Assembly (NCBI GenBank): GCA_011390575.1
Contig: JAABSE010000005.1
Coordinates: 2,726-66,725 of the forward strand
Reading direction: 5' to 3'
Length of the DNA stretch: 64,000 nt
Origin: Sphingobacteriia bacterium
GTDB taxonomy: Bacteria > Bacteroidota > Bacteroidia > Bacteroidales > UBA7960
The translations under genes and the position numbers were made by a program. Below the pieces are notes generated by a model. It worked only from the letters and a program-made list of their open reading frames with translations. It made no database searches and was not told the DNA's origin. Within the stretch, counting starts at the first letter, position 1. Every line of letters starts with the position of its first letter. Below are positions 7,605 to 60,103 of the stretch, piece by piece.

Positions 7605-9314
<1,710 letters not shown>

Positions 9315-39136: not shown

Positions 39137-39669
39137 GGGTGCTAAAGTCGTATGGGTTCATGGTTGATTTTTGTTCTGCCGGATGGCATTTGGGCGGGTT
39201 TCGTAGTCAAATTCCAGACAGTTCCAATTGAATTATATATTCAATGTAAAGGTAACTAAAATACAAATGACAAAAATCCAAAATCTCCTAAATAAGGAAG
39301 AATAGCCCAACCGGTCTGTAAAATAAACATAAATATCCTGCAAAAGTTTGAGAGACGAATTTTGCGAAAAAAGAGTAAAAAACGCTGATAAAGGCATTAG
39401 AAATTTTTTCCGGCTATTAACAAAGTATATACAACTACCATTTCAGAAAATTTTTTACTGCCACAATGGTTTTGCCTGGAAATGTCTTATTTCAAACGTT
39501 TGCGGAGAGCTTTTGTCCGGTCGAAAGGATTGTATGTTTTGTTGTATATAAGAAATATAGAGTAGGCTGTGATTTATCCTGTTTACTTTTACCTCCGTTG
39601 ATAATTTACTTCGACTTATTATTATCAAAATTATTCAAACCAAAACCCAAAAAACTAAAACAAACGTCT

Positions 39670-42600
39670 ATGAAGCGTATTATTATGATGCTGTTTTTCC
39701 TGAGTTTTTCAGCTATTCTGTTGGGCCAGGCAAATCAGGTAAAAGTAAATGAAAAGGAAGACGGCTGGAGGCTCCTGGTCAATGACAAGCCTTTTATGGC
39801 GAATGGAATGAACTGGGACTATTTTCCCATTGGCACAAATTTTATGTATAGCCTGTGGGACGAATCAGATGATTTCATCAAAAAGGCATTGGATGATGAA
39901 ATGTCACTGCTCCGGAATATGGGAGTTAACACTATCCGTGTATATACCGGTATTCAGCCCAAGTGGATACAGTATATTTACGAGAACTATGGTATTTACA
40001 CCATGCTCAATCATTCATTTGGTCGGTATGGCTTGACCTTAGACGGAGGGTGGGAAGCTGTAACTAAATACGATGATCCTGCCACACAAGAACTTCTCCT
40101 TTCTGAAGTCACTCAAATGGTTGAGGAGTATAAGGATACACCCGGGCTTTTACTTTATCTTCTGGGTAACGAAAACAACTATGGCTTATTTTGGGCCGGT
40201 GCCGAAACAGAAGACTTCCCGGAGGGCGAAGATCAAATTAATGCTGTTGGTGAATATCGGGGGCGGCCCATGTATCGATTGATGAACGAGGCGTCCAAAA
40301 AAATGAAGGCAGTTTCCTCTTCACATCCGGTGGCCATCTGTAATGGTGATCTGCTGTTTTTGGATATAATCGCTGAAGAATGCCCCGATGTGGACATTTT
40401 GGGTGTCAATGTATACAGAGGAATGTCTTTCACCGATATGTTTGACAGGGTGAAAAATGAATATGGCAAACCCATTTTGTTGACTGAGTTTGGCTCAGAT
40501 GCTTTCAATGCCATCACTATGGAAGAAGCTCAAAGAGAGCAGGCCAATCTGAATATTGCCAACTGGAGAGAGATTTATGAAAATGCTGCCGGTATAGGTA
40601 AGGCCGGAAACTCTATTGGGGGGTTTACTTTCCAGTTTAGTGACGGATGGTGGAAATATGGACAGACCGAAGAACTGGATGTACACAATACCAATGCATC
40701 CTGGGAAAACGGAGGATACACCTTTGACCATATTCCCGGCGAAAATAACATGAATGAAGAATGGTTTGGTATATGCGCCAAGGGACCAACTGATGTCATG
40801 GGTTTTTACCAGCTCTTCCCACGAGCTGCTTATTATGCACTTAAAGAGGCTCATGAGCTTGATCCTTATGCAGAGGGCACCACATTGACTTCCATCAGGC
40901 AGCATTTTGGTGAGATTGCTATTGGAGATGCTTTTCTGAAAGCAAGAGGCGATAAGGCAGCACTTGAAGGTGAAAGAACCCGGACCATCCGCCTGAGCCG
41001 TTTCACTGCTGAGTTTTCTACCTTCAGCACCGGGGGTAGCCTGATTACTACTCCCGACGATCCCATTTCGGGCAGCACAACCTATCCCGACCAGTTGGGA
41101 TTTGATGACATGCAGTCTTTCTATGTGGGTGTTGAAGCCAATCCTGCCCCCAACTTTCATGGAGAAGTAGAATTTAACATTTTGGGAAATGTTGCCCTGA
41201 ATCCCATTGACCAGATATTTTACGAAAACAGAGGCCGACAGGTTCAGTTCAACAGCGATGATGGCAATGTAAATGTAGAATCCCTGAACAGAATCCAGGT
41301 TTACAGGGCAAGTTATAAATGGGAGCACAAATGGTTTAACCTTGACGGTTTTTATCGCACCGGCCACTATCACTGGGGCTATGAGGGCGATTTTTTTGGA
41401 TTGTATCCCGAAGCTAACTATGGCCCCAATATTGACATTTATAATGGCGTGGCTCCCTTTGGTTTTGAGATTGAAGGGAAAAGAGAATTGAAAGATTTCA
41501 AACTTGCCTTCGGCCCGCAGTTATGGTGGGGTGCAAACCCTGCCTTCCTGCTCAAGTACGGCCGGGAAATTGGAAAATTTGATATTACCGGTATATATCA
41601 TGAAGACCTTGATCAGCTGGGACTTACTGAGAGTTCTTTCGCCATACCTCAGCCCAAAACCCGCAGGGTAACCCTGCACGTAAACAGAGAGTTTGGCAAG
41701 CTGGGTGTTGATGTGGGTGGTATATGGGCAGGTCAGCCCCTGGAAGGGCGTCAATTCCAGATTTACAGAGAAGAAGAGGATGAGCAAAATGTTTATGTTG
41801 ATGAAATAAAACCCGAAGATACCTGGGGTGGAAAAATCAAATTGACCTGGACCGGTGGCAGATTTAACTGGTATGCGCAATCTGCCATCAAAGGCCTTGT
41901 TGCGCAGGGAGGAGTAGATCAAACCCTTACTTTCACCGGCTGGAGACTCAAAGACAGTGGTAGCGGAAACCAGATGAATTTCTTGTCTGGCTTTGCTTAT
42001 ACGTTGGGAAATCTTCAGATTGCCCCCAATTTCCTGTGGCAGAAACCCCTGGAAGGGCCTATCCCCAATACCGTTCCAGCCCCCGGCAGACCCAGAAACA
42101 TCCTTACCGATCCCTTCGTGGTCAGAGCAAACAGGGAGCAAGTATCCGGGGAAATATTGTTTACCTGGGACCCTACGCCCGGCACCTGGATGTATGATTG
42201 GGATAGCGACAGAACAGAAGATGCGGAGTTTGCTGTCAGCGCAGGCTTTGTATATCGTCATTTGCCCACCACTATGGATGCTGCCATTGGTATATTGCCT
42301 GATGGCCGCACCACGTTTGCTTTTCCCGGGGCTCCTTCTGCCAGGGACTTGTGGGAAGTGCATGCAAGAATTATTTCAAAAATTAACAGCGACTATGGCT
42401 TTATTGCCACAGCGTATGGGGGCGATGCCCAGGCCAACGGCAGCGATGACCGTACTATCAGTCGTTATGGTTTGGATTTGCGGATGATATACCGCAAAAT
42501 CAATATCAATTCATTTGTCAGAATCAATGACTGGGGTCCTTACGATTATCACCGCGACTTTAACCTTACTTTCCCGCTGCAGGTAATGGCTGATATATCT

Positions 42601-42816
42601 ACTACCCTGGGGAGTCCTGATTGGATCGAAATTCCCAATACCCGAATCGGTTTGAGAGGTACCTATCGTACCCTTGACAAGTTTTCACCAAGATATTCTC
42701 CCACGCAAATTGTTGATGACAGTGGCGAGCTGGTACCTGATCCCGATGCAATAGGTTTTGACAACGGAAATGAATGGGAAATCAGAACATATATTTTAAT
42801 CAACGTTGGTAATTAA
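39670..42816 (+). CDS. secreted clan GH-A (TIM-barrel) glycoside hydrolase domain fused to a ~600 aa beta-strand-rich C-terminal region (candidate outer-membrane barrel)
   Basis: The likely start is ATG 39670 (MKRIIMMLFFLSFSAILLGQA signal peptide); the track ORF extension from 39466 is implausible. The N-terminal half carries GVNTIRVY, LLGNENNYG (acid/base-like NE) and ILLTEFGSDAF (nucleophile-like E). The C-terminal half has many alternating amphipathic strands (YGLDLRMIYR, IGLRGTYRTL, WEIRTYILINV). Confidence 0.6.
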   Translation: MKRIIMMLFFLSFSAILLGQANQVKVNEKEDGWRLLVNDKPFMANGMNWDYFPIGTNFMYSLWDESDDFIKKALDDEMSLLRNMGVNTIRVYTGIQPKWIQYIYENYGIYTMLNHSFGRYGLTLDGGWEAVTKYDDPATQELLLSEVTQMVEEYKDTPGLLLYLLGNENNYGLFWAGAETEDFPEGEDQINAVGEYRGRPMYRLMNEASKKMKAVSSSHPVAICNGDLLFLDIIAEECPDVDILGVNVYRGMSFTDMFDRVKNEYGKPILLTEFGSDAFNAITMEEAQREQANLNIANWREIYENAAGIGKAGNSIGGFTFQFSDGWWKYGQTEELDVHNTNASWENGGYTFDHIPGENNMNEEWFGICAKGPTDVMGFYQLFPRAAYYALKEAHELDPYAEGTTLTSIRQHFGEIAIGDAFLKARGDKAALEGERTRTIRLSRFTAEFSTFSTGGSLITTPDDPISGSTTYPDQLGFDDMQSFYVGVEANPAPNFHGEVEFNILGNVALNPIDQIFYENRGRQVQFNSDDGNVNVESLNRIQVYRASYKWEHKWFNLDGFYRTGHYHWGYEGDFFGLYPEANYGPNIDIYNGVAPFGFEIEGKRELKDFKLAFGPQLWWGANPAFLLKYGREIGKFDITGIYHEDLDQLGLTESSFAIPQPKTRRVTLHVNREFGKLGVDVGGIWAGQPLEGRQFQIYREEEDEQNVYVDEIKPEDTWGGKIKLTWTGGRFNWYAQSAIKGLVAQGGVDQTLTFTGWRLKDSGSGNQMNFLSGFAYTLGNLQIAPNFLWQKPLEGPIPNTVPAPGRPRNILTDPFVVRANREQVSGEILFTWDPTPGTWMYDWDSDRTEDAEFAVSAGFVYRHLPTTMDAAIGILPDGRTTFAFPGAPSARDLWEVHARIISKINSDYGFIATAYGGDAQANGSDDRTISRYGLDLRMIYRKININSFVRINDWGPYDYHRDFNLTFPLQVMADISTTLGSPDWIEIPNTRIGLRGTYRTLDKFSPRYSPTQIVDDSGELVPDPDAIGFDNGNEWEIRTYILINVGN

Positions 42817-42828: not shown

Positions 42829-44697
42829 ATGAAACCAAATATATTGATTCGTTTTACGCAACTTATTACTGCCGCGGCTTTTCTTGCCTTATTGGCGGGT
42901 TGCGAGCGCGACATAACAGATTTAGAAGAAGCATCCTTTCCCACCAATCCTGAAGTATTTATTGATGGTTTCAGTGCCGGGCTGAATTATGCAGCTTTTG
43001 GAGGTTCTGTACCTACCGCTTTTTCGGTAGATAATGATGTAACTTATGATAATTCAGCAGCTTCCATGAGAATAGAAGTGCCTGATGCCAATGATCCAAG
43101 AGGTTCTTTTGCCGGAGGTGTGTATTATCTGGATACAGGTCGCGACTTGTCCGGATACAATGCACTTACTTTCTGGGCCAAAGCTTCTCAGTCAGCTACT
43201 ATTGGTGAAATTGGGCTAGGGAATGATTTGGGTCAGAATGAATTTGTCGTATCAATCCAGGGACTGAATGTTTCCACCGGATGGAAAAAATATATTATTC
43301 CTTTGCCTGACCCTTCCCGCCTCACACAAGAACGTGGTTTGTTCTGGTATGCCGCGGGTAATCTGGATGGCAATGGTTTTACCTTCTGGATTGATGAAGT
43401 AAAATATGAAAAACTCGGAACCATTGCACATCCTGAATATGCTATTCTCAATGGTGAAGACCAGGTGGAAACCTCTTTCATAGGAGTGACCAAATCTATC
43501 GGTGGATTAACAACTACTTTCAATATGCCCACAGGTATTAACCAGGCTGTAAGTGCTGCCCCGGCTTATTTTGAGTTTGTTTCTTCCGACCCTTCCATTG
43601 CAACTGTTGATGCCAGCGGAACTGTTACTGTTACCGGTGGTCCGGGAAATGTTGAGATTACTGCTCATGTAGGTGAGGTTGCTGCAGAGGGTTCATTGAC
43701 GATGCAGTCGCTGGGCGATTTTGAACAAGCACCCGTACCTACACACGATCCTGAAAACGTAATTTCTATTTTCAGTGAAGCCTACGAAAATATTCCGGTT
43801 GATTATTACAATGGTTACTGGGAGCCTTATCAAACCACCCAATCGGCCGATTTTATCGTGGAGGGTAACAGAGTGCTGAATTACACCGATTTTAACTTTG
43901 TGGGAATTCAGTTCACTTCTCCTACTATAGATGCCAGCTCAATGACACATTTGCACCTGGATATTTATCTTCCCAATCCATTAAATGCCGGTGCTGAGTT
44001 TAATATTGAGATAGTTAATTTTGGGGAACCCAATGTCTCAGGATCTTACACTATACCCATCCCGGTCGATCAGGCACAGCAATGGATAAGTATTGATGTT
44101 CCTTTTGAAGATTTGGGAGGGTTGACCAGCAGAGACAATCTTGCTCAGATAATTTTCCTGGATGAGAGTGAAAATATTCCCGGTTTTTATGCCGATAATA
44201 TATATTTCTATAATGATGGAGCAGAACCTCCCACGCCTGATGAGCCCGAGTCACCTGCACCCACTCCAACGCACGATGCAGCCAATGTTACGGCCATTTA
44301 CAGCGATTCCTATGATGTAATTCCTGGCACAAACTTTTTCCCTGACTGGGGGCAGGCCACTGTGGTTACTGAAATCCAGATTCAGGGTAACAATACCTTA
44401 CGATACCAGGGTTTGAACTACCAGGGCATTGAATTGGCTTCCTCTCAGGATTTTGCCGACATGGATTATCTGCACCTGGATTTCTATACTGCCAATTCTA
44501 CTGAGTTATATGTTTACCTGATTAGTGAAGGTCCCGTGGAAACAGGGTATACTTTATCAGTTCCTACTACAGGCTGGTCAAGTGTTGATATTCCCATGTC
44601 TGCCTTTGCGCCGGTAGATTTGGGAGGAGTAATTCAGCTAAAGTTTGATGGCAACGGAGATATTTTTCTCGATAATATTTACGTCCATAAAGAATAG
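42829..44697 (+). CDS. surface lipoprotein with CBM-like modules and a Big_2-like domain (candidate glycan-binding protein)
   Basis: 622 aa. Lipobox LLAGC. The order is an N-terminal CBM-like domain, a Big_2-like segment (VSSDPSIATVDASGTVTVTG), then two ~145 aa modules homologous to those in the 58049..60085 protein. Confidence 0.6.
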   Translation: MKPNILIRFTQLITAAAFLALLAGCERDITDLEEASFPTNPEVFIDGFSAGLNYAAFGGSVPTAFSVDNDVTYDNSAASMRIEVPDANDPRGSFAGGVYYLDTGRDLSGYNALTFWAKASQSATIGEIGLGNDLGQNEFVVSIQGLNVSTGWKKYIIPLPDPSRLTQERGLFWYAAGNLDGNGFTFWIDEVKYEKLGTIAHPEYAILNGEDQVETSFIGVTKSIGGLTTTFNMPTGINQAVSAAPAYFEFVSSDPSIATVDASGTVTVTGGPGNVEITAHVGEVAAEGSLTMQSLGDFEQAPVPTHDPENVISIFSEAYENIPVDYYNGYWEPYQTTQSADFIVEGNRVLNYTDFNFVGIQFTSPTIDASSMTHLHLDIYLPNPLNAGAEFNIEIVNFGEPNVSGSYTIPIPVDQAQQWISIDVPFEDLGGLTSRDNLAQIIFLDESENIPGFYADNIYFYNDGAEPPTPDEPESPAPTPTHDAANVTAIYSDSYDVIPGTNFFPDWGQATVVTEIQIQGNNTLRYQGLNYQGIELASSQDFADMDYLHLDFYTANSTELYVYLISEGPVETGYTLSVPTTGWSSVDIPMSAFAPVDLGGVIQLKFDGNGDIFLDNIYVHKE

Positions 44698-44738
44698 TAA
44701 TAACATGGCTTTTTGTCAAACATAAAAAGACAAATCAT

Positions 44739-45572
44739 ATGAAATCAATAAATATTGCAAAAAATAATTTTCTCTATGTTGTCATACTGCTTTTATGGGT
44801 CATGGCAATAGGATGCGATCGTGACGATTTTCAGAAACTGGAAGAACGGGAATGGAACCTGGTGTGGAGCGATGAATTTGATGGTGAAGCAGGTGAGTTG
44901 CCTGATCCGACCCGATGGGCCTTCGACCTGGGAACAGGAGAAGGTGGCTGGGGAAACGCTGAATTACAAAGCTATACGAATAACCCGGAGAATGTTTCTA
45001 TGGATGGAGAAGGCAACCTGGTGATTACCGCCATACAGGACGGCAATACCTTCACTTCTGCCCGGATAAAAACACAGGGTCTGTTTTCTCAGCAATACGG
45101 CCGTTTTGAGGCAAGGCTGAAAACCCCTTATGGACCGGGGTTATGGCCTGCATTCTGGTTGCTGGGTGATAATATTGAAACCGTTGGCTGGCCTCAGTGC
45201 GGAGAGATAGACATCATGGAGCTCAGAGGGCAGGAGCCCCACATCATACATGGTTCTATTCATGGACCCGGCTACTCAGCAGGAAACCCTGTTTCCAAAA
45301 GTTATGCCCTGGTAAACGATCGTTTTGATGCTGATTATCATGTCTTTGCCATTGAATGGGATGAAGACAAGATTGACTTTTTTGTGGATGATTACCTGTA
45401 TCAACGCATCGAAAACACCGATGTGCCGGGAGAGTGGGTCTACGACCAGCCCTTTTTCATTCTCCTCAATGTTGCGGTGGGCGGCAATTACGTGGGATTT
45501 CCAACTGGTCAAACACCTTTTCCGCAGCAAATGATCATCGATTATGTAAAAGTTTACGAGGAAGTAAAATAG
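44739..45572 (+). CDS. GH16 endo-beta-1,3-glucanase (laminarinase-type) lipoprotein
   Basis: 277 aa. Lipobox AIGC. GH16 catalytic motif GEIDIMELRG, then WPAFWLLG and FFILLNVAVGG. Confidence 0.85.
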   Translation: MKSINIAKNNFLYVVILLLWVMAIGCDRDDFQKLEEREWNLVWSDEFDGEAGELPDPTRWAFDLGTGEGGWGNAELQSYTNNPENVSMDGEGNLVITAIQDGNTFTSARIKTQGLFSQQYGRFEARLKTPYGPGLWPAFWLLGDNIETVGWPQCGEIDIMELRGQEPHIIHGSIHGPGYSAGNPVSKSYALVNDRFDADYHVFAIEWDEDKIDFFVDDYLYQRIENTDVPGEWVYDQPFFILLNVAVGGNYVGFPTGQTPFPQQMIIDYVKVYEEVK

Positions 45573-45644
45573 CGACCACATTTTGTTTCTGATATATTAT
45601 TACACTGTATTTATAAACACTTTAAAACCTTAAAAGATAATACC

Positions 45645-48600
45645 ATGAACAAAGCTTATTCAGACACTGCAGCCCCCAACCCACAAAAGAAGGTTGACCT
45701 GAAGATAGTAGATCATGAAAATGAAAGCTACTTCAAAATGAGCAACCATGATGCCATGCGGCCTTTTTTTATGAGCATCGTGAGCGATGCCAATCACTGG
45801 ATGTTTATTTCCAGCAATGGCGGTCTGTCGGCGGGGCGTAAAAATCCTGAATATGCTTTGTTCCCGTATTATACGGATGATAAAATCACCGAATCAGCAG
45901 ATATTACCGGAAGTAAAACCATCTTTCAGATTCATCATGACAATGATGTGCTGATTTGGGAGCCTTTTTCGGAAAGATTTACTGACAGGTATTCCATCAG
46001 CCGTAACCTCTATAAAAGCATTTATGGCAACAAAATCATTTTTGAAGAAATCAATCATGATTTGGATCTGACTTTCCGCTACCAGTGGAATTCAGGTAAG
46101 ATATATGGTTTTATCCGGAATGCTGAAATCATAAATACATCCAGCAAGGATTACCGCATTACCCTGCTTGATGGTATTCAGAATATCATGCCCTATGGCG
46201 TGCCCAACGATATGCAGCGCGCTACCAGCAACCTTGTGGATGCTTATAAAAGAAGTGAAGTGGATCCTGCCTCAGGTATCGGCATTTTTGCCTTGAGTGC
46301 CATCATTGTGGATAAGGCCGAGCCCAGCGAAGCGCTGAAGGCAAACATTGCCTGGTCACTGGGTATTGACAAACCCACTTTTCTGCTTTCTTCTATGCAG
46401 TTGAAAAACTTCCGGCAAAAACAGCCTGTTAAGCCCGAGCGGGATGTTAAAGGTGAAAAAGGAGCCTATTTTGTTTCTGCAGGGATTTCGTTGCCTGGAG
46501 GCAAAACGAAAAAATGGCAGATCATTGCCAATGTCAACCAGACGCTGTCTCAGGTAATCAGTTTGTCAAACTCCATACAAGAGGATGCTCATCTTGCAGA
46601 TAAAATCCGGCAGGACATTGATTCAGGAACTCAGCACCTGATTCAGCTTGTTGCAAAAGCTGACGGGCAGCAGTTTTCGGCTGATAAACTCACTGATACA
46701 CGTCATTATTCCAATGTGTTGTTCAATATCATGCGAGGCGGTATTTTTGACGATAATTACCTGATCAAGAAGAAAGATTTTGTCAGTTACCTGCACAAAG
46801 CCAATAAAGATGTGGTGAGGCGTAACCCCGGATTTATCCGGGCACTGGAAAATGAATTCAGTCAATCGGCATTGAAAGAACTTCTTACCAAAACTGAGGA
46901 TGTTGACCTGATTCGTTTGTCCATAGAGTATTTGCCCCTGAAATTCAGCCGCCGGCACGGCGATCCCAGCCGCCCCTGGAATTATTTCACCATCAACATC
47001 CAGAATGAAACCGATGGATCTGAAATACTTGATTATGAAGGCAACTGGCGCGATTTGTTCCAGAACTGGGAGGCACTGGCTTATTCCTACCCGGAGTTTA
47101 TTGAGGGAATGATATTCAAGTTTTTAAATGCCTCCACTTTTGATGGATACAATCCTTACAGGGTTACCAAAGACGGCTTCGACTGGGAAACCATTGAGCC
47201 CGACAACCCCTGGTCGTATATTGGCTACTGGGGAGATCATCAAATCATTTATCTGCAAAAATTCTTTGAGATTATTGAGAAGTATCATCCCGGCAAATTG
47301 CAATCCTTTTTTGATAAGGAATGGTTTGTTTACGCCGCAGTACCCTATATAATTAAGCCTTATGATCAAATCCTCCAGAATCCGAAAGATACCATTGCTT
47401 TTGATCACAAATGGGATGCTGCCATTCGCAAACAACGCGAAATGATGGGCGCTGACGGTACTTTGTTAATGGCCGACAGCAAAGAGATTTACCATGTAAA
47501 TTTCCTGGAAAAAATCATGGCAACCGTACTGGCTAAAATGTCCAACTTTATTCCGGAAGCCGGTATCTGGCTCAACACCCAACGACCCGAATGGAACGAT
47601 GCCAACAATGCGCTGGTTGGAAACGGTGTTTCAATGGTTACACTCTATTACCTGCATCGCTTCATGAAGTTTTTCAGCAATATGCTGGAGGGATCCCATT
47701 TGGAAAACATCAAGGTTTCCAACGAACTTATTGAATTCTATCACAGTGTGAGAGAAACGCTGTATGAGTTTGCTCCTTTGCTGGCCGGAGAAATGAAGGA
47801 TACAGACAAAAAAGCATTCCTGGATCAACTGGGAAAAGCCGCATCGGAATACCGGCAGCATATCTACCAAAGCGGATTCTGGGGCAAGAAGAGAAGCGTA
47901 TCTCTTTCCGGATTAAAGAAATTCTCCCGGGCTTGTATCGAATTTATTGAGCATTCTATTGATGCCAATCAGAGAGAAGACAAATTGTACCATGCCTACA
48001 ACCTGATATCAGCAAACGACGGGAAAGTTTCAGTTTCTCACCTGAGCGAGATGCTGGAAGGGCAGGTTGCCGTGTTGAGTTCGGGATATCTGAGTGCTGA
48101 TCAGGCTCTTGAGGTGTTGGATGCATTGAAAAGCAGTGCCCTGTTCAGAGAAGATCAGTACAGTTACATCTTGTATCCCAATAAAGAATTGCCGGGATTT
48201 CTGGAGAAAAATACCATTCCTGCATCTGATGCCAAATCTTCGGAATTGATCAGGAAAATGGTGGCCGATGGAAACCACCAGATTGTTGAACAGGATATTG
48301 AGGGAGGTTTCCATTTCAATGGCAATTTTAAAAATGCCCGCGACCTGGAGAAGGCTCTTGATGATCTGGCAGGTGATGAATACAAAGACCTTGCTGAAAA
48401 AGAGCGCAAACTTCTGCTGGAAATCTTTGAAAAAGTTTTCAACCACAGAGCCTTTACGGGCAGATCAGGAACCTTCTTTGCTTTCGAAGGACTGGGATCT
48501 ATTTACTGGCATATGGTATCGAAACTTTTGCTCGCAGCGCAGGAGTGTTGTTTGAAAGCCATTGATGAGAAAGCGGACCCGGTTGTGATTGGAAAATTAC

Positions 48601-49097
48601 TGGATCATTATTATGAAATTGAGGCCGGAATAGGTGTTCACAAGTCGCCTGAGTTGTATGGTGCATTTCCCACCGATCCTTATTCGCATACTCCCCAGCA
48701 TCGCGGGGCACAACAACCCGGAATGACTGGTCAGGTGAAAGAAGATATCTTGTCGCGATTCGGCGAGCTGGGCGTATTTGTAAGGAAAGGTCAGCTCCAA
48801 TTCCATCCTTCCCTGCTCAGACAGGATGAGTTTCTGACCCGCTCACAGAATTTCGAATACGTAACCCTCAGCGGTGATAAAGAGACCATTGTTTTGGAAA
48901 AGGGGCAACTCGCTTTTACTTATTGCTCGGTGCTGGTAGTTTATGTGATTTCAGGACAGGAAAAAATCACTGTGTTTTTTGCTGATGGCAACAAAGAAGA
49001 AGTGGATGGAAACATGCTGAATAAACAAATCAGCAACCATGTTTTCCAAAGAACCGGAAAGATCGCCAGGCTGGAAGTCAGTTTGAAAATGGAATAA
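45645..49097 (+). CDS. large cytoplasmic glycoside-phosphorylase-like protein (GH94/GH149/GH161-like; candidate beta-1,3-glucan or -oligosaccharide phosphorylase)
   Basis: 1150 aa. Hydrophilic N-terminus with no signal peptide. The motif RPEWNDANNAL (about 47585-47617) resembles the D-W-N-D-x-x-N catalytic-loop motif I recall from GH94-type phosphorylases. The size matches the ~130 kDa GH149 enzymes. The family call is unverified. Confidence 0.45.
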   Translation: MNKAYSDTAAPNPQKKVDLKIVDHENESYFKMSNHDAMRPFFMSIVSDANHWMFISSNGGLSAGRKNPEYALFPYYTDDKITESADITGSKTIFQIHHDNDVLIWEPFSERFTDRYSISRNLYKSIYGNKIIFEEINHDLDLTFRYQWNSGKIYGFIRNAEIINTSSKDYRITLLDGIQNIMPYGVPNDMQRATSNLVDAYKRSEVDPASGIGIFALSAIIVDKAEPSEALKANIAWSLGIDKPTFLLSSMQLKNFRQKQPVKPERDVKGEKGAYFVSAGISLPGGKTKKWQIIANVNQTLSQVISLSNSIQEDAHLADKIRQDIDSGTQHLIQLVAKADGQQFSADKLTDTRHYSNVLFNIMRGGIFDDNYLIKKKDFVSYLHKANKDVVRRNPGFIRALENEFSQSALKELLTKTEDVDLIRLSIEYLPLKFSRRHGDPSRPWNYFTINIQNETDGSEILDYEGNWRDLFQNWEALAYSYPEFIEGMIFKFLNASTFDGYNPYRVTKDGFDWETIEPDNPWSYIGYWGDHQIIYLQKFFEIIEKYHPGKLQSFFDKEWFVYAAVPYIIKPYDQILQNPKDTIAFDHKWDAAIRKQREMMGADGTLLMADSKEIYHVNFLEKIMATVLAKMSNFIPEAGIWLNTQRPEWNDANNALVGNGVSMVTLYYLHRFMKFFSNMLEGSHLENIKVSNELIEFYHSVRETLYEFAPLLAGEMKDTDKKAFLDQLGKAASEYRQHIYQSGFWGKKRSVSLSGLKKFSRACIEFIEHSIDANQREDKLYHAYNLISANDGKVSVSHLSEMLEGQVAVLSSGYLSADQALEVLDALKSSALFREDQYSYILYPNKELPGFLEKNTIPASDAKSSELIRKMVADGNHQIVEQDIEGGFHFNGNFKNARDLEKALDDLAGDEYKDLAEKERKLLLEIFEKVFNHRAFTGRSGTFFAFEGLGSIYWHMVSKLLLAAQECCLKAIDEKADPVVIGKLLDHYYEIEAGIGVHKSPELYGAFPTDPYSHTPQHRGAQQPGMTGQVKEDILSRFGELGVFVRKGQLQFHPSLLRQDEFLTRSQNFEYVTLSGDKETIVLEKGQLAFTYCSVLVVYVISGQEKITVFFADGNKEEVDGNMLNKQISNHVFQRTGKIARLEVSLKME

Positions 49098-49128
49098 TCT
49101 TTTGTCATTAATCAAATTGTAGTACAAC

Positions 49129-50190
49129 ATGAAAAATGGATTCTGGTTTTTAATTCTAATCATATCACTGACTATCATGTCTTGTAATTTTTCAGGAAAA
49201 GACAGAGGGGAAACTGAAACAGCCCCTCCTTTGCCCCAGGCCGAAAGCATGCTGTTAACCGGCGTTTCTGAAGCGGTATGTTATTCCGGTTTCCGTACCG
49301 GGCAACATCCCGATCGGGGAGATGGGGCTGTAAATCCCAGTTATGAAGAAATACTGGAAGACTTGCAGATACTGGCAGAACAAACACCTTTCCGCTTGTT
49401 TCGGCTTTACGATTGTGAAGAAAACACCCAGATGGTGCTGGAAGTGATTCGCGAGCACAATCTCGACTTTAAAGTAATGCTGGGCATATGGCTGCGTGCC
49501 GAAATTGACAGCTATGAAACATGCGAGTGGCTCACCGAACCCTGGCCGGCAGAAACCCTTGAGCAGAACAAAAAACTCAACGATCTGGAGATAGCAAAAG
49601 GGATTGAACTGGCCAATGAATATCCGGATATCATTGCAGCGGTAAATGTAGGCAATGAAGCACTGGTTGACTGGAACGAACACCGGGTTACTGTTGATTC
49701 GGTAATTACCTACGTGAAAAGAGTTCAGCAAGCCATTGAGCAACCCGTTACGGTGGCAGATAACTACAAATGGTGGGCCGACAACGGGGCAGAGCTGGCA
49801 GAGGTAGTCGATTTCGTCTCTGTTCATACTTATCCCATCTGGGAAGGAAAGGATATCGATGAAGGGATGAGCTACACCCTTGAGAATGTTGAGGAAGTGA
49901 TGACTGCATTGCCGGGCAAACAAATTGTAATCGCTGAAGCGGGATGGGCTTCCATCGCCTCTGAGTTTGGACCAAGAGCAAGCCAGGAGAAGCAGAAACA
50001 ATATGTTAGCGACCTCATGGAGTGGTCAAAACAAAACAACATTACCACGTTCATCTTTGAAGCTTTTGACGAAGACTGGAAAGGAAATCCCGACAACCCC
50101 CTGGGAGCTGAAAAGCATTGGGGTTTATACACCGTGGATCGGGAGCCCAAAGAAGTAATAAACACATTTACCCATCACGATTCCAATTGA
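49129..50190 (+). CDS. GH17-like (clan GH-A) beta-1,3-glucanase lipoprotein
   Basis: 353 aa. Signal and lipobox LTIMSC. YSGFRTGQHPD, VNVGNEALV, IAEAGWAS, FEAFDEDWKG and EKHWGLY. Confidence 0.65.
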   Translation: MKNGFWFLILIISLTIMSCNFSGKDRGETETAPPLPQAESMLLTGVSEAVCYSGFRTGQHPDRGDGAVNPSYEEILEDLQILAEQTPFRLFRLYDCEENTQMVLEVIREHNLDFKVMLGIWLRAEIDSYETCEWLTEPWPAETLEQNKKLNDLEIAKGIELANEYPDIIAAVNVGNEALVDWNEHRVTVDSVITYVKRVQQAIEQPVTVADNYKWWADNGAELAEVVDFVSVHTYPIWEGKDIDEGMSYTLENVEEVMTALPGKQIVIAEAGWASIASEFGPRASQEKQKQYVSDLMEWSKQNNITTFIFEAFDEDWKGNPDNPLGAEKHWGLYTVDREPKEVINTFTHHDSN

Positions 50191-50240
50191 TTTGCACATT
50201 TCTGACAGAATATTAAATCATAAGAAACCTCCATTGAGTT

Positions 50241-51593
50241 ATGAGTAAAATCACCAAAAAGTTATCCATAAAAGAAAAAATCGGCTACGGCCTGGGCGAT
50301 ACGGCATCGCATTTTGTCTGGGACATGGTTGGTTTCTGGATACTGATTTTTTATACCGACACTTTTGGGATTTCAGCGGCTGCTGCGGGTACAATTATGC
50401 TGATTGCCCGGTTCTGGGATATGTTCAGCGATCCGCTGATGGGGATTATTGCCGACAGAACCAATACGCGCTGGGGAAAATTCCGACCCTATTTATTATG
50501 GATGGCATTGCCCTACAGTGTGCTGGCAGTGCTTACTTTCACTACACCCGACCTTGGTCCCACGGGGAAGGTGGTTTATGCAGGTGCAACCTATCTTTTG
50601 CTGATGACCGTTTTTACGGCCATCAACCTGCCTTATTCTTCCCTGGGAGCTGTAATGACTTCTGATTCTTATGAAAGAGCAGGCTTGAACTCCTACCGTT
50701 TCATTTTTGCTTTTGCCGGTCAGTTTATCGTAACGGGCAGTGCTCTTTACCTGGCCAACTATTTTGGCCGGGGAGACATGGCGCAGGGATATCAGTATAC
50801 GCTGATTCTTTTTGCTGTAATCAGCTTTATCCTGTTCATGGTTACCTTCAAAACAACCCGTGAAAGAGTTGCTCCGCCCAAAGCACAGCAGAAAAACCTT
50901 AAAGAGGATATCAAAAATCTTTTCCGAAACCGCCCCTGGGTAATTCTGTTTTTTGTAGGCATTATTTCGTTTGTCATGTTTGCCTTGCAAAATCTTACCA
51001 TCGCCTATTATTTCAAATATTATGTGGGACAGGAGCAAAGCGTTCAGTTGTTTAATATTATTGGTACCGTTGCATTGATCATTGGTATACCCTTTTCCAA
51101 GCCCCTTGCCCGGCGGTTCGGCAAACGAAATGTTTACATGGCAAGCTCACTGATTTCAGGTATGTTTTTCATTTTGCTTTATATCCCGGGCAACGATAAC
51201 ATTTACGCTGTTTACATTCTTAATATTCTGGCCAAATTCACCTACGCACCTGCCGTGCCATTGCTCTGGACCATGCTGGCTGATGCTGCCGATTACTCCG
51301 AATGGAAGTTCCATCGCCGGGCAACCGGGTTGGTGTTTTCGGCTGCTACATTTGCCCAGAAAGCAGGGTGGGGCATAGGAGGTGCACTGGCAGGCTGGCT
51401 GCTGGCATTGTTCCGCTTTGTGCCTAATATAGAACAAACCGCATCGTCTCTCAATGGCATTAAACTAATGATTTCCGTTTTCCCGGGAGTACTCTATATG
51501 TCTTGTGCCATACTTCTTTATTTCTATGCCATTGACCAGAAAACCTGTCTGGAAATGGAAAAAGAACTTGAACAACGAAGAGAAGAATCATAA
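50241..51593 (+). CDS. glycoside-pentoside-hexuronide (GPH):cation symporter family MFS transporter
   Basis: 450 aa, 12 TM. GYGLGD and DRTNTRWGKFRPY motifs typical of the MelB/GPH family. Confidence 0.85.
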   Translation: MSKITKKLSIKEKIGYGLGDTASHFVWDMVGFWILIFYTDTFGISAAAAGTIMLIARFWDMFSDPLMGIIADRTNTRWGKFRPYLLWMALPYSVLAVLTFTTPDLGPTGKVVYAGATYLLLMTVFTAINLPYSSLGAVMTSDSYERAGLNSYRFIFAFAGQFIVTGSALYLANYFGRGDMAQGYQYTLILFAVISFILFMVTFKTTRERVAPPKAQQKNLKEDIKNLFRNRPWVILFFVGIISFVMFALQNLTIAYYFKYYVGQEQSVQLFNIIGTVALIIGIPFSKPLARRFGKRNVYMASSLISGMFFILLYIPGNDNIYAVYILNILAKFTYAPAVPLLWTMLADAADYSEWKFHRRATGLVFSAATFAQKAGWGIGGALAGWLLALFRFVPNIEQTASSLNGIKLMISVFPGVLYMSCAILLYFYAIDQKTCLEMEKELEQRREES

Positions 51594-51615
51594 TTGCCTG
51601 TTATCATTCAAAATT

Positions 51616-52923
51616 ATGTTGAAAAATAAAATAATTATATTCCCAATGACACGAAAACTCTATTTCCTGATTCCATTATTTGCCCTGCTGTTCTCAATTT
51701 CCTGTACTCCGATGCAGGATCCCAGAAATAAATCCGCAGCAGAAATATTGGGAAATCCTGACTACCAGGCCATTTCTTATGGTGGGTATCGCGGGATTAC
51801 CAGAGACTTACAGCCTACCCTTCCACAGCTCAGGGAAGATATGAGAATATTATCCGCCATGGGGATAAAATTGCTGCGCACCTATAATGTGCATCTCGAT
51901 GAAGCAGCCAACCTGTTGGAAACCATCCATCAGCTGAAACTGGAAGACCCTGAATTTGAGATGTATGTGATGCTGGGTGCATGGATTGATTGCAAAAACG
52001 CCTGGACTGACCTGCCTGATCGGATTCGCGATGAGGAAAGTGAAAGAAATGCCGTGGAAATGGCCCGTGCAGTTGAATTGACACAACAATATCCGGATAT
52101 CGTGAAAATTCTGGCTGTGGGAAATGAAGCCATGGTACACTGGGCATGGGAGTATTATGTGGAGCCGGCCATTATACTGAAATGGGTCAATTATTTACAA
52201 AACCTCAAGAAAGAAGGTGAACTGCCCGAAACCTTGTGGATTACCAGTTCTGATAATTTCGCATCCTGGGGCGGCGGAGGTAGTGAGTACCATGTGGATG
52301 ATTTGAATGAATTGATAAAAGCGGTTGACTTTATCTCTATGCACACCTATCCCATGCACGATACACATTATAACCCCGATTTCTGGGGGGTGCCCAGAGA
52401 AGAAGCGTATATGTCGGATTTGGAAAAAATTCATTCTGCCATGCGAAGGGCAAGAGAATATGCTACTTCACAGTATCAAAGTGTAGTGGAATATATGCAA
52501 AGTCAGGGGGTAAACAAACCTGTGCATATCGGAGAAACCGGATGGGCTTCTATATCCAATGAGCAATACGGAGAAAAGGGGGCAAGAGCTACGGACGAGT
52601 ATAAAGCTGCACTCTATTATCATAATATGCGTGAATGGACCAACCGGGAAAGAATAACCTGCTTTTATTTTGAAGCTTTTGACGAACAGTGGAAAGATGC
52701 TGCCAACCCCATGGGTTCTGAAAATCATTTTGGCTTGATAAATTTACAGGCACAGGCAAAATATGCTTTGTGGGATTTGGTGGATGATGGCACCTTCGAG
52801 GGGTTAACCCGCGATGGCAACCCCATTACCAAAACCTTTCTGGGCAATAAAAAAGCTTTGATGGAAACGGTAAAAGTTCCGCCCACTGAACAGGAAATAA
52901 TGGAAAGAGAAAGACAGGATTGA
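51616..52923 (+). CDS. GH17-like (clan GH-A) beta-glucanase, secreted/lipoprotein
   Basis: The track ORF begins at GTG 51505 inside the upstream gene. ATG 51616 (or 51646, MTRKLYFLIPLFALLFSISC) gives a lipoprotein signal. AVGNEAMV, IGETGWAS, FEAFDEQWKD and ENHFGL. Confidence 0.65.
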   Translation: MLKNKIIIFPMTRKLYFLIPLFALLFSISCTPMQDPRNKSAAEILGNPDYQAISYGGYRGITRDLQPTLPQLREDMRILSAMGIKLLRTYNVHLDEAANLLETIHQLKLEDPEFEMYVMLGAWIDCKNAWTDLPDRIRDEESERNAVEMARAVELTQQYPDIVKILAVGNEAMVHWAWEYYVEPAIILKWVNYLQNLKKEGELPETLWITSSDNFASWGGGGSEYHVDDLNELIKAVDFISMHTYPMHDTHYNPDFWGVPREEAYMSDLEKIHSAMRRAREYATSQYQSVVEYMQSQGVNKPVHIGETGWASISNEQYGEKGARATDEYKAALYYHNMREWTNRERITCFYFEAFDEQWKDAANPMGSENHFGLINLQAQAKYALWDLVDDGTFEGLTRDGNPITKTFLGNKKALMETVKVPPTEQEIMERERQD

Positions 52924-52927
52924 GAGG

Positions 52928-53046
52928 GAAGACAGAAGACAGAAGACGGGAGACGGGAGACGGGAGATGGGAGATGGGGAAACGAAGACGGAGGACAGAA
53001 GACGGAAGACGGAAGTTTGAAGACAGGAGAGTGAAGACTGAAGAGT
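52928..53046 (+). repeat. 17 tandem purine-rich heptads (consensus G-R-A-G-A-C-R)
   Basis: Read directly: gaagaca gaagaca gaagacg ggagacg ggagacg ggagatg ggagatg gggaaac gaagacg gaggaca gaagacg gaagacg gaagttt gaagaca ggagagt gaagact gaagagt. It starts 5 nt after the stop of the upstream gene and ends 50 nt before the GH30 ATG. Confidence 0.9.
52948..52979 (+). other. canonical G-quadruplex motif within the heptad array
   Basis: GGGAGACGGGAGACGGGAGATGGGAGATGGGG has five G3+ tracts separated by 4-nt loops, on the sense strand of the operon. Confidence 0.7.
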
Positions 53047-53096
53047 AGAATATAGTGCGATTTTAGGATAAAATATAACCAATCAAATAAAAAGAC

Positions 53097-54614
53097 ATGA
53101 AAAGCAAAATCCAATCAATCATTTCATTCATCATAATCGTGGTCATTATGAGCAGTTGTTCCGAATCCCGGCAATGGGAAGCCGAAATCTTTGAAACTTC
53201 AGAAAGTGGCAATAAACTTAGCAAAGTAACCGAATTTCCTGCACTGGAAGAGCAGGTGGAAATTACCATTCTGCCCGATGAAAAATTCCAGACCATCACC
53301 GGGGTAGGAGGTTCTTTTACCGAAGCTTCCGCTTACCTGCTTAATCAGTTGAGCCAGGAGAACAGGGATAAAATCCTTGAAGCCTATTTTGGTGAGTCAG
53401 GTGCGAAGTATTCATTGACCCGTACCCACATGAACTCGAGTGATTTTTCGCTTGGAAACTATTCTTATGCTCCTGTTGAAGGAGATACCGAACTGGAACA
53501 TTTCTCTATTGAAGAAGACATGGATGATATCATTCCTATGATCAAAGATGCCATGGCCGTTTCCAAAGATGGATTTAAAATCATATCATCGCCCTGGACA
53601 GCCCCCCCGTGGATGAAGGATAACAAAGACTGGAAAGGAGGTAAATTATTGCCGGAATACTATGATACCTGGGCGTTATTCTTTTCCAGATATTTAGACG
53701 CTTATCGCGAACAGGGCATTGATATATGGGCATTTACAGTTGAAAATGAACCCCTGGGTAACGACAGTAACTGGGAGAGCATGCACTTCACTCCGCAGGA
53801 GATGAATGTATTTGTGAAAAACCATCTTGGACCCCAACTAAGGAATGATGAACAGGATGTTAAGATTCTGGGGTACGACCAGAATCGCGATGCTGAACTT
53901 ATCGAATGGGTCGATGCCATGTATGACGATGAAGAAGCTGCCCAATATTACGATGGTACAGCTGTTCACTGGTATGGAAGCACTTTTTACCACTTCCCCG
54001 ATGCCTTGCAATATGCTTACAATAAAGCACCCGGCAAGCACTTGATACAATCGGAAGCATGTGTTGACGCTGAAGTACCCAGGTGGCAGGATGATAAATG
54101 GTACTGGGCCAAAGAAGCTACCGATTGGGGCTGGGATTGGGCACCGGAAGAAAGAAAGCATCTGCACCCCAAATATGTACCGGTGTTTAGGTATGCCCGT
54201 GATATCATTGGTTGCTTCAATAACCAGGTAGATGGATGGGTGGACTGGAATATGGTGCTTGACAGGCAAGGGGGACCTAACTGGGCACAAAACTGGTGTG
54301 TTGCTCCTGTAATTGTAGACCCCGAAAATGATGAAGTGTATTTCACCCCGCTGTATTACACCATGGCCCATTTTAGCCGGTATATAAGACCGGGTGCTGT
54401 CAGGATCGGCTTTGATTTAGCTGATGAAGAACTGCAGGTAACTGCAGTTGAAAATCCTGATGGAAGTATTGCTGTAGTAATTTTCAATCCCACAGATAAT
54501 GCAAAAGGAATAAATCTTTCCTTGCAAGGAGAATCTCAGCAATTCGCCATCAGCGCAAAAGCCATTCAAACCCTTGTTATCGGCGGTGAAAATAATATTC
54601 AATTTTCCATCTAG
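53097..54614 (+). CDS. GH30 glycoside hydrolase (glucosylceramidase-like; candidate beta-1,6-glucanase) lipoprotein
   Basis: 505 aa. Lipobox IMSSC. SPWTAPPWMK, FTVENEP (acid/base) and LIQSEAC (nucleophile region). Confidence 0.85.
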   Translation: MKSKIQSIISFIIIVVIMSSCSESRQWEAEIFETSESGNKLSKVTEFPALEEQVEITILPDEKFQTITGVGGSFTEASAYLLNQLSQENRDKILEAYFGESGAKYSLTRTHMNSSDFSLGNYSYAPVEGDTELEHFSIEEDMDDIIPMIKDAMAVSKDGFKIISSPWTAPPWMKDNKDWKGGKLLPEYYDTWALFFSRYLDAYREQGIDIWAFTVENEPLGNDSNWESMHFTPQEMNVFVKNHLGPQLRNDEQDVKILGYDQNRDAELIEWVDAMYDDEEAAQYYDGTAVHWYGSTFYHFPDALQYAYNKAPGKHLIQSEACVDAEVPRWQDDKWYWAKEATDWGWDWAPEERKHLHPKYVPVFRYARDIIGCFNNQVDGWVDWNMVLDRQGGPNWAQNWCVAPVIVDPENDEVYFTPLYYTMAHFSRYIRPGAVRIGFDLADEELQVTAVENPDGSIAVVIFNPTDNAKGINLSLQGESQQFAISAKAIQTLVIGGENNIQFSI

Positions 54615-54638
54615 ATTATAATCAAAAAAATAAAAATA

Positions 54639-56069
54639 ATGACATCCTACAAAACACCCTTAAAAGACAGAGTGCCTCTGGGGCAAAAGGCAGCTTTCGG
54701 AGCCGGCCATTTGGTAAACAATTTATTGCCGGGATCGCTGGGGGTCTTCATGTTTTTCCTGCTTACCGCCTTTGGCATGGACCCTTTTCTTGCCGGATTG
54801 CTCGGGGGCCTGCCCCGGTTTTTTGATGCCATTACCGACCCTATCATGGGGTATATATCAGATAATACCACTTCGAAATATGGCCGCAGAAAGCCCTACA
54901 TTTTTATAGGAGCCATTCTGAGTGGAGTTTTGTTTGCTGTTTTATGGCAACTTAACCCTGAGAATACGCAAGCTTACAATTTCTGGTATTTTCTCATCCT
55001 TTCTATGGTTTACCTGTTGGGAAATACGATGTTTTCCACTCCGCTTATCGGGTTGGGTTATGAAATGACCTCTGATTACAATGAGCGCACCCGTTTGATG
55101 GGTTTCTCCCAAACCCTGGGGCAGGTTGCCTGGATGATTGTTCCCTGGTTCTGGGTACTCATTGCCAACCCTGATTTGTTTGATTCCCAGGCAATAGGCG
55201 TGCGAAGGCTCTCCATTATTGTAGGAGGTATCTGTATGGTTCTGGGGATGATGCCCGCTTTATTCTGTAAAGAAATAGACCAGTCCAATCTTACCAACCG
55301 GGATGATCTAACCCTGAAAAATATATTTAAGAACCTGAAAAGCCTGATCAGGAATATGGTGCTGGTATTTAAAAACAAGACTTTTGTAAAGCTCTGTGCT
55401 GCCACCTTTCTGGTTTTTAATGGCTTTCAGATGGTGGCATCCTTCAGTTACTTTATCATTGTCTTTTATATGTTTAAGGGTGACTATGGTGCTGCCGGAA
55501 CCTGGCCCGCCTGGTTTTCCACTGTAAGTGCCCTTTTTACTGCTTTTCTTATTATTCCCATTATCACCTGGATGGCTAATAAATGGGGTAAAAGGAATGC
55601 GTTTATTATCGCAACATTTCTCTCAATCATTGGATATGGTTTGAAATGGTGGGGTTTTAACCCGGAAAATCCCTGGTTGATGTTCATGCCGCTTCCATTG
55701 ATGGTATTTGGAATCGGGGGACTATTTACCCTGATGATGAGTATGACTGCCGATGTGTGTGACCTGGACGAACTTAACAATGGAATGCCGCGCAAGGAAG
55801 GCACTTTTGGAGCCATTTACTGGTGGATGGTGAAGCTGGGTCAGGGCCTGGCACTGGTGCTTGGCGGGTTGGTGCTTTCAGTTGTGGGTTTTGATCAGAA
55901 TGCCGCGGTTCAAACAACCGAAACCCTTACCCGTCTGAGACTTGCCGATATTATAGTTCCGGCATTCACAGCTGGGTTGGCTATACTGGTGATGTGGAAT
56001 TACGATCTCACCGAAGAAAAAGCAAGAGAGATTAAAAATGAACTTGTAAAGAGAAGAGGAGAACTCTGA
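54639..56069 (+). CDS. GPH/MFS-family sugar:cation symporter (second paralogue)
   Basis: 476 aa, about 12 TM. DNTTSKYGRRKPY motif equivalent to the GPH loop motif. Confidence 0.8.
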   Translation: MTSYKTPLKDRVPLGQKAAFGAGHLVNNLLPGSLGVFMFFLLTAFGMDPFLAGLLGGLPRFFDAITDPIMGYISDNTTSKYGRRKPYIFIGAILSGVLFAVLWQLNPENTQAYNFWYFLILSMVYLLGNTMFSTPLIGLGYEMTSDYNERTRLMGFSQTLGQVAWMIVPWFWVLIANPDLFDSQAIGVRRLSIIVGGICMVLGMMPALFCKEIDQSNLTNRDDLTLKNIFKNLKSLIRNMVLVFKNKTFVKLCAATFLVFNGFQMVASFSYFIIVFYMFKGDYGAAGTWPAWFSTVSALFTAFLIIPIITWMANKWGKRNAFIIATFLSIIGYGLKWWGFNPENPWLMFMPLPLMVFGIGGLFTLMMSMTADVCDLDELNNGMPRKEGTFGAIYWWMVKLGQGLALVLGGLVLSVVGFDQNAAVQTTETLTRLRLADIIVPAFTAGLAILVMWNYDLTEEKAREIKNELVKRRGEL

Positions 56070-56118
56070 TTTACAGGATGAAGTTATGAAGCTACTAACT
56101 ATATAATGAATAAACAAA

Positions 56119-57958: not shown

Positions 57959-58048
57959 AAAATTTATCACGAAGAAGGCTCACAATGAATTATTAAAATC
58001 AAATAAATCAAATCAAATATTTTTTTACAAACCAAAATCACAATTATC

Positions 58049-60085: not shown

Positions 60086-60103
60086 TATATTGACAAAAAA
60101 ATG

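Follow-up and report, generated by a model that had tools for sequence, protein, structure and literature searches.

A predicted cytoplasmic GH149 β-1,3-glucan phosphorylase in a laminarin-type operon of an uncultured Bacteroidales lineage

We analyzed a 64,000-nucleotide stretch of contig JAABSE010000005.1 (the whole of it is called the window below) and focused on the open reading frame (ORF) at 45645–49097. An earlier model-made reading of the letters alone, termed the sequence-only reading, had proposed its product as a candidate β-1,3-glucan phosphorylase resembling glycoside hydrolase (GH) families GH149 and GH94. This proposal was supported and could be narrowed to GH149 proper: the ORF very probably encodes a cytoplasmic GH149 phosphorylase acting on laminari-oligosaccharides in a catabolic laminarin operon.

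The family assignment was first given by a profile search. The protein matched the NCBIfam equivalog NF058639.1 (GH149_beta_1_3, 1,3-beta-D-glucan phosphorylase) with 1789.9 bits, compared with a cut-off of 1150, and the match spanned residues 14–1147 of the protein and positions 2–1133 of the 1134 in the model. The sequence-only reading had made its proposal depend on a hidden Markov model match to GH94, GH149, or GH161, and such a match was thus obtained far above the cut-off. Among solved structures, the sole strong match was PDB 6HQ6/6HQ8 (1704 bits over residues 13–1147), which is Pro_7066, the crystallized and biochemically characterized bacterial GH149 (PMC5827456, PMC6771811). The identity to Pro_7066, whose chain sequence was rebuilt from printed alignments, was 64.7% over 1135 residues with 4 gap positions. 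As judged from its sequence, the 1150-aa protein is a clear and intact member of GH149, an already-known family.

The ORF starts with an ATG, which is the most upstream possible start, and comprises 1150 codons with zero internal stops, so that the length given in the sequence-only reading was correct. The proteins of the relatives L001, L002, and L013 were alignable with it from residue 1. The predicted mass and pI were 131.6 kDa and 5.8, respectively. The N-terminus, MNKAYSDTAAPNPQKKVDLK..., is hydrophilic and has no hydrophobic stretch, and neither a signal peptide nor a transmembrane (TM) segment was detected when the whole protein was examined by a simple hydropathy test, which was used here instead of SignalP. 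The peak Kyte-Doolittle mean over 19 residues was 1.42, compared with the usual TM threshold of approximately 1.6. These values agreed with the earlier statement that the protein carries no signal peptide or TM segment, and suggested that it resides in the cytoplasm.

The catalytic residues were mapped by alignment with Pro_7066, in which W651-N652-D653 includes the predicted catalytic Asp (D653), R470-D471 forms the RD motif, E951 contacts a donor-sugar hydroxyl, and H959 is predicted to recognize phosphate (PMC6771811). The motif that had been noticed near residue 645 corresponded to QRPEWNDANNALVGNG at residues 646–661; W650-N651 aligned with W651-N652 and D652 with D653, and D652 is accordingly placed as the predicted catalytic Asp. 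R469/D470, E948, and H956 were all kept as well, and hence both comparisons suggested by the sequence-only reading, that of the catalytic Asp and that of the phosphate-binding residues, turned out in favor of GH149. In an alignment of 80 sequences, including 79 full-length homologues from other genomes, R469, D470, W650, N651, D652, E948, and H956 were invariant (80/80). The stretch Q646–G659 was also invariant in 80/80; therefore, the catalytic-loop motif is not a chance occurrence. The domain layout was judged by alignment with the crystal-structure sequence: the six domain segments of Pro_7066 aligned essentially without gaps, with identities of 66%, 37%, 69%, 46%, 50%, and 43%. Because the alignment contained only 4 gap positions, the two GH149-specific insertions, Dom1 (46% identical) and Dom2 (50% identical), are present. 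At the remote surface oligosaccharide-binding site, 6 of the 8 Pro_7066 residues were kept, including the Y-E motif.

We next considered the genetic context. The GH149 gene is the fourth of 13 genes on the plus strand between 39670 and 62877, with intergenic gaps of −20 to 173 nt, and their order is as follows: first gene, 622-aa lipoprotein, GH16, GH149, GH17a, GPH1, GH17b, GH30, GPH2, GH17c, GH17d, type IX secretion system (T9SS) protein, and regulator (Table 1). The GH16 gene upstream and the GH17 gene followed by a glycoside-pentoside-hexuronide:cation (GPH) symporter gene downstream, all named in the sequence-only reading, were confirmed by Pfam and TIGRFAM matches. In total, the cluster contains one GH16, four GH17, and one GH30 gene, together with those of two GPH symporters and a regulator of the BguR type.

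Table 1 Features of the operon and of the GH149 protein in the window.
Feature	Position	Strand	Basis
First operon gene, 1048 aa: signal peptide, GH158/GH157-like TIM barrel (~22–385), helical linker, predicted outer-membrane β-barrel (~440–1048)	39670–42816	+	
622-aa lipoprotein, signal ...LLAGC	42829–44697	+	Big_2 E=2.9e-5; CBM_11 E=2.9e-4, below its cut-off
GH16 endo-β-glucanase, lipoprotein signal ...MAIGC	44739–45572	+	Pfam GH16 E=1.1e-25
GH149 β-1,3-glucan (laminari-oligosaccharide) phosphorylase, predicted cytoplasmic	45645–49097	+	NCBIfam NF058639.1, PDB 6HQ6
R469-D470, RD motif recognizing sugar 1-phosphate (= Pro_7066 R470/D471)	47049–47054	+	Residue mapping, codons verified
Catalytic loop QRPEWNDANNALVGNG, residues 646–661; W650-N651-D652 = WND motif, codons verified	47580–47627	+	
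E948 (= Pro_7066 E951) to H956 (= Pro_7066 H959)	48486–48512	+	Residue mapping, codons verified
GH17a, lipoprotein signal ...IMSC	49129–50190	+	Pfam GH17 E=1.3e-9
GPH1 symporter (inner-membrane oligosaccharide importer)	50241–51593	+	TIGR00792 E=8.5e-123, MFS_2 E=4.8e-108
GH17b, FbGH17A orthologue, lipoprotein signal ...FSISC	51616–52923	+	PDB 6FCG 592 bits, E=5.4e-177
GH30, β-1,6-glucanase/glucosidase type (debranching), lipoprotein signal ...MSSC	53097–54614	+	Pfam GH30 E=1.5e-73
GPH2, second MFS_2/GPH symporter	54639–56069	+	MFS_2 E=1.9e-61, TIGR00792 E=1.7e-55
GH17c, glucanosyltransferase-like, no signal peptide (cytoplasmic)	56119–57039	+	Pfam GH17 E=2.9e-11; 4WTP E=5.6e-33
GH17d, no signal peptide	57020–57958	+	Pfam GH17 E=2.1e-6, at cut-off
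678-aa secreted protein, T9SS C-terminal sorting domain	58049–60085	+	Por_Secre_tail E=1.1e-7
Intrinsic-terminator-like hairpin, 11 pairs then T run	60103–60130	+	Closes structural operon
BguR-type membrane-spanning one-component regulator, 899 aa	60178–62877	+	Pfam and hydropathy

The arrangement around the GH149 gene was conserved. When 80 GH149 loci were compared by tblastn, the core order GH16-GH149-GH17-GH30-GPH-GH17 was found in most of them, from Bacteroidales, Saprospiraceae, Flavobacteriaceae, and Cytophagales. Loci of Mariniphaga, Lentimicrobium, Tenacibaculum, and Winogradskyella were among those with this operon. The GH17a paralogue was confined to Bacteroidales/Saprospirales relatives, and the GH17a-GPH1 pair and GH17d are lineage-specific additions. 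The original GH149 paper associated bacterial GH149 genes with GH16, GH17, major facilitator superfamily (MFS) transporters, and polysaccharide utilization loci (PULs) (PMC5827456), and the cluster of Muricauda lutaonensis comprises LuxR, 'GH2', GH16, GH149, GH17A, GH30_1, MFS, and GH17B (PMC13188888). The context of GH16, GH17, GH30, and sugar transporters that the sequence-only reading had named is both present here and in line with these publications.

Here, we propose a laminarin degradation pathway by combining the above results. The operon from 39670 to 60085 would serve the use of laminarin/β-1,3(1,6)-glucan under the control of the BguR-type regulator at 60178–62877, with GH149 at the last step. 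Surface or secreted proteins, namely the glucanase of the first gene, the lipoproteins GH16 and the 622-aa binding protein, and the T9SS-sorted cargo, would attack the polymer, and the periplasmic lipoproteins GH30, GH17b, and GH17a would then debranch and cut the products. Short oligosaccharides would be imported by the two GPH symporters and, in the cytoplasm, converted to glucose-1-phosphate by GH149 alongside the signal-less GH17c and GH17d, which may hydrolyze or rearrange the same oligosaccharides. As an inverting phosphorylase of clan GH-Q, GH149 would use inorganic phosphate (Pi) and a β-1,3-gluco-oligosaccharide with a degree of polymerization (DP) of at least 2 to yield α-D-glucose-1-phosphate and a shortened chain, and finally glucose. 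Glucose-1-phosphate would enter glycolysis via phosphoglucomutase, sparing one ATP per glycosidic bond relative to hydrolysis followed by glucokinase; this ATP saving, which had also been put forward in the sequence-only reading, is a reasonable inference.

Several points weigh against this proposal. The specificity of the enzyme is assumed from that of an orthologue with 65% identity, and Pfam contains no GH149 model, so that this library gives no support either way. The signal-peptide calls of the locus were made manually and from hydropathy, with no dedicated predictor. At the surface site, E982 and E990 of Pro_7066 are replaced by P979 and D987; therefore, the chain-length behavior could differ from that of Pro_7066. 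GH17c and GH17d could be in part redundant with the phosphorylase, and no gene for phosphoglucomutase or glucokinase was found in the window. In addition, phosphorolysis is reversible, and only the catabolic context indicates the in vivo direction of GH149.

The reversibility also bears on a different role for a GH149-fold enzyme, namely synthesis of an intracellular β-1,3-glucan reserve, perhaps with GH17c and GH17d, or action on another β-glucoside. Pro_7066 builds chains of DP 11 or more in vitro (PMC5827456) and has relaxed acceptor regioselectivity, tolerating β-1,2-, β-1,4-, and β-1,6-linked disaccharide acceptors (PMC6484121); GH17c is nearest to a glucanosyltransferase, and a storage role was suggested, as a speculation of the authors, for the products of its Muricauda counterpart MlGH17B (PMC13188888). 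However, the gene lies in a catabolic layout, between genes for secreted or periplasmic β-1,3/1,6-glucanases and importers and next to that of a BguR-type regulator, which in Formosa agariphila is an activator responding to laminarin, and no glucan synthase or storage genes were found in the window. Cytoplasmic Pi also normally favors phosphorolysis. We therefore regard such a role as improbable and prefer the catabolic phosphorylase.

Membership in a sister family of clan GH-Q, either GH94 of the laminaribiose/cellobiose type or GH161, which needs a DP of at least 3, has a negligible chance of being correct. The WND/RD/His catalytic apparatus is common to the families of the clan, and chains of GH161 and 'cellobiose phosphorylase' (9qqk and 9h8v) were indeed matched at E=1e-10. 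These matches, however, were confined to three short stretches, with 43 bits for GH161A (9qqk) against 1704 bits from end to end for Pro_7066, and are what the clan relationship would be expected to give, not a sign of membership. The GH149 equivalog cut-off was surpassed by 640 bits, both GH149-specific inserted domains are present, and the Pfam scan of the protein yielded no GH94 domain at E≤0.01 and nothing else except a sub-threshold match to DUF5660. By these comparisons, the GH94/GH161 assignment is effectively refuted. Equally hard to credit is a decayed gene copy or an assembly artefact: the source is apparently a metagenome-assembled genome (MAG) and the GH149 homologues of the relatives L026 (7612–11052) and L066 (3063–6395) showed in-frame stops in tblastn alignments, as possible pseudogenes or assembly errors, but the 1150 codons here are uninterrupted with 4 gaps against the crystal-structure sequence, all catalytic residues and the neighboring genes are intact, and the GC content of the gene (44.0%) is close to that of the window (42.9%).

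The other genes of the operon were characterized by homology. The 622-aa lipoprotein is a probable surface glycan-binding protein, and its gene adjoins the first gene in 41 loci. The true start of GH17b was placed at 51616, M38 of the mechanical ORF beginning at 51505, on the basis of homologue alignments and the signal peptide; its orthologue FbGH17A is the Formosa endo-β-1,3-glucanase (PDB 6FCG). GH30 matched the NCBIfam endo-1,6-beta-glucanase BT3312 model with E=4.3e-77, which is below the cut-off of that model. GH17c, whose closest structure was the β-1,3-glucanosyltransferase 4WTP, sits at the position of MlGH17B/FbGH17B, and its end overlaps the start of GH17d by 20 nt. The counterpart of this signal-less GH17 is a transglycosylase in Muricauda (MlGH17B; PMC13188888) and an exo-glucosidase in Formosa (PMC6246565). 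In the 678-aa T9SS protein, no recognized catalytic domain was found, and only a weak PKD-like match was seen at the N-terminus (8qx6, E=5.5e-4); in 16 related loci, its gene likewise closes the set of structural genes.

The hairpin behind this gene was the strongest terminator-like hairpin on the plus strand in the scanned region 44000–63500. It is followed by the regulator, in which a signal peptide, a Y_Y_Y domain at 624–680 (E=1.1e-3, below the Pfam cut-off), one TM segment at approximately 689–708, and a GerE helix-turn-helix at 848–891 were recognized, with no His-kinase or HATPase match in Pfam. In Formosa agariphila, activation of the laminarin PUL by BguR has been demonstrated. BguR was defined by a length of 850–1050 aa, a signal peptide, a periplasmic sensor with Y_Y_Y, a single TM segment, a C-terminal GerE domain, and no kinase or receiver (bioRxiv 10.64898/2026.01.10.698779), and the predicted architecture of the regulator agrees with this definition. 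The motif 'TTGTATATA...ATATAG' was observed at 39530–39565, 110–130 nt upstream of the ATG of the first gene, and it recurred in front of the homologue of this gene in L013, L010, L032, L011, and L022. The motif, a candidate for a promoter or a BguR operator, falls within the 5′ part by which the mechanical ORF 39466 is spuriously extended. A sigma-70 scan returned 50 sites against 39.4 ± 7.1 expected, Bacteroidota promoters being outside the coverage of the tool.

The more unusual point of the locus is not GH149 but the neighboring first gene. Its start was set at 39670 (M69) since the mechanical ORF start at 39466 lies too far upstream and homologues align from approximately residues 66–69; the NCBI gene call P0012 is likewise 1048 aa long and 100% identical. 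Pfam detected GH2_C (E=1.8e-6), and the conserved C-terminal part of approximately 600 aa matched no Pfam or NCBIfam model. The family comprises more than 5,500 proteins of approximately 1044 aa, whose annotations do not go beyond 'glycosidase' or 'GH2 TIM barrel-domain containing'. This family probably corresponds to 'GH0' in the North Sea PUL papers, whose notation includes 'GH149-GH0-GH16_3'.

An AlphaFold2 (AF2) model of the protein (pLDDT 63, pTM 0.46) showed a TIM barrel, a four-helix linker, and approximately 26 long antiparallel strands, in which hairpins with turns of 2–3 residues alternate with long, poorly predicted loops. In Foldseek searches, the TIM barrel was closest to the β-1,3-glucanases of GH158 (E=4.8e-12; BuGH158, 4e-10) and GH157 (2e-9), and the remainder was nearest to outer-membrane (OM) barrels. 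A separate AF2 model of residues 386–1048 (pLDDT 60, pTM 0.56) gave OM β-barrels exclusively among the top 50 Foldseek matches, with TM-scores of 0.2–0.45; the best was BtuB (5.9e-10), and Cir, AlgE, PapC/FimD, chitoporin, LptD, and ScrY were also included. The dyad-hydrophobicity for transmembrane β-strands was 1.33 in the C-terminal part, compared with 1.00 in the TIM-barrel strands. From the AF2 models and the Foldseek matches we consider, with moderate confidence, that the first gene encodes a GH158/157-like β-1,3-glucanase fused to a large OM β-barrel. In the literature that was searched, no relevant description of a GH157/GH158-barrel fusion was found.

This gene was of further interest with respect to glycan uptake. 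The ORFs scanned across the 64-kb window contained no Pfam domain of the TonB-receptor, Plug, or SusD type. ORFs of at least 899 aa were limited to those of GH149, the fusion encoded by the first gene, the regulator, and a repeat protein with T9SS sorting. A SusC/SusD pair is thus absent, and the cluster is therefore a carbohydrate-active enzyme (CAZyme) operon of the laminarin-PUL type, not a formal PUL. Two candidates for the pair were rejected. The first gene and the 622-aa gene would correspond to SusC and SusD by size and position, but both lack TonB, Plug, and SusD domains; and instead of a SusC gene beginning beyond the regulator, a gene for an Rnf/Nqr-like membrane protein follows after 62877 on the minus strand.

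The co-occurrence of the fusion and SusC was counted in the 50 GH149 loci for which 7 kb or more of upstream sequence was available. The fusion without SusC was found in 34 loci (for example, L002 at 4340 and L013 at 4511), a SusC-like protein without the fusion in 8, neither in 7, and both in 1 (Fisher p=9e-5, with no correction for common descent). Four of the 8 SusC-like proteins in the fusion-free loci were confirmed by Pfam, and a SusC-like transporter gene lies upstream of GH149 in L004 (1934–5029), L006 (1658–4804), L018 (410–3448), and L047 (1382–4576). In L027, the sole locus with both, SusC is located 7 kb downstream, and no locus has both in the slot upstream of GH149. It is conceivable, although we hold it only tentatively, that laminarin uptake is independent of SusC/D here: on the modeled structure, the fusion with its barrel of approximately 24–26 strands might replace SusC/D as a combined cutter and OM gate, or act as an autotransporter-like anchor, and feed the GH17/GH30-GPH-GH149 route. 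If this were true, the fusion would define a new kind of OM glycan-processing protein, and PUL prediction based on SusC/D would count laminarin users differently.

The window appears to derive from a Bacteroidota genome. The nearest species-representative genomes were those of uncultured Bacteroidales and Bacteroidetes MAGs with 88–89% identity, and T9SS sorting domains elsewhere in the window were consistent with this origin. Several of these genomes belong to sediment and microbial-mat series, which we take to be from soda-lake studies. Neither Rfam families nor tRNAs were matched anywhere in the window. Outside the operon, the gene at 16612–21321 (−) encodes a surface protein of 1569 aa that is sorted by the T9SS and contains PKD-like domains as well as 11 units of Flg_new_2 (divergent InlB B-repeat). 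An amino-acid (carbamate-type) kinase gene stands beside that of an ornithine carbamoyltransferase at 25770–27769 (+), which could represent arginine catabolism, and a PPK2 polyphosphate kinase gene lies near this pair at 29070–29954 (+). The 1.4-kb stretch 9267–10710 contained no ORF above 100 aa and no tRNA or Rfam match; its sole ORF, at 10024–10305 (−), encodes 93 aa with a signal-like N-terminus.

The gene itself is ordinary and its value modest: it adds a confidently assigned GH149 whose catalytic machinery is intact and whose source is an uncultured lineage of Bacteroidales, outside the marine Flavobacteriia in which GH149 loci have mostly been discussed so far. It lends support to phosphorolytic, ATP-sparing breakdown of laminari-oligosaccharides as a standard end-step of β-1,3-glucan use across Bacteroidota, and may be a further candidate biocatalyst for β-1,3-glucan synthesis.

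Among known phosphorylases, the closest is Pro_7066, which degrades laminaribiose and laminaritriose by phosphorolysis as far as glucose and uses acceptors from Glc to G6 equally well (PMC5827456; PMC6484121). The two proteins share the four-domain layout with Dom1 and Dom2, identical WND/RD/Glu/His residues, the Y-E motif, a cytoplasmic location as predicted here, and a mass of approximately 130 kDa. They differ in the surface-site residues, P and D standing here for E982 and E990, and the linker, Dom1, Dom2, and C-terminal jelly roll are merely 37–50% identical. Their sources also differ, a Bacteroidales-like MAG here and a presumed Flavobacteria-like organism for Pro_7066 (PMC5827456). EgP1 of Euglena gracilis, the founding GH149 member, is 45% identical to Pro_7066 and has the catalytic residues in common; it belongs to the same family as the protein here but is eukaryotic and differs from Pro_7066 in its acceptor-length kinetics (PMC5827456). 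GH161 (PapP and GH161A; 9qqk) and GH94 (PsLBP) catalyze a similar inverting phosphorolysis of β-glucosides with the conserved Asp, −1 subsite, and phosphate-binding His. In contrast, GH161 cannot cleave laminaribiose, the GH94 laminaribiose phosphorylase acts on the disaccharide only (PMC6484121), and both families are without Dom1 and Dom2 (PMC6771811). Their similarity to the protein here is at the clan level only.

In Escherichia coli, the phosphorylase MalP and the glucanotransferase MalQ harvest glucose-1-phosphate from imported maltodextrins in the cytoplasm. The GH149 system may be a functional analogue, as a phosphorylase stands beside a transferase-type enzyme, GH17c being glucanosyltransferase-like, although the folds are unrelated and the linkages are β instead of α. 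A disproportionating partner is not required for GH149, because GH149 already accepts DP2 (PMC6484121).

Finally, the locus was compared with those of Muricauda (PMC13188888) and Formosa (PMC6246565). Here, the regulator gene stands at the 3′ end of the cluster behind the terminator, whereas in Formosa agariphila and Muricauda it precedes the structural genes. The GH17a-GPH1 pair, GH17d, and the T9SS cargo gene are extra, and GPH2 and GH17c have a gene each, in contrast to the fused MFS-GH17 of Formosa (PMC6246565). Unlike Formosa, the 64-kb window contains no SusC/D. On the other hand, the gene set and order around GH149, the signal-less second GH17 after the MFS gene, the BguR-type regulator, and GH17b as the FbGH17A orthologue are all shared. 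The arrangement is therefore the one already described for Muricauda and Formosa, and it is conserved across Bacteroidota.

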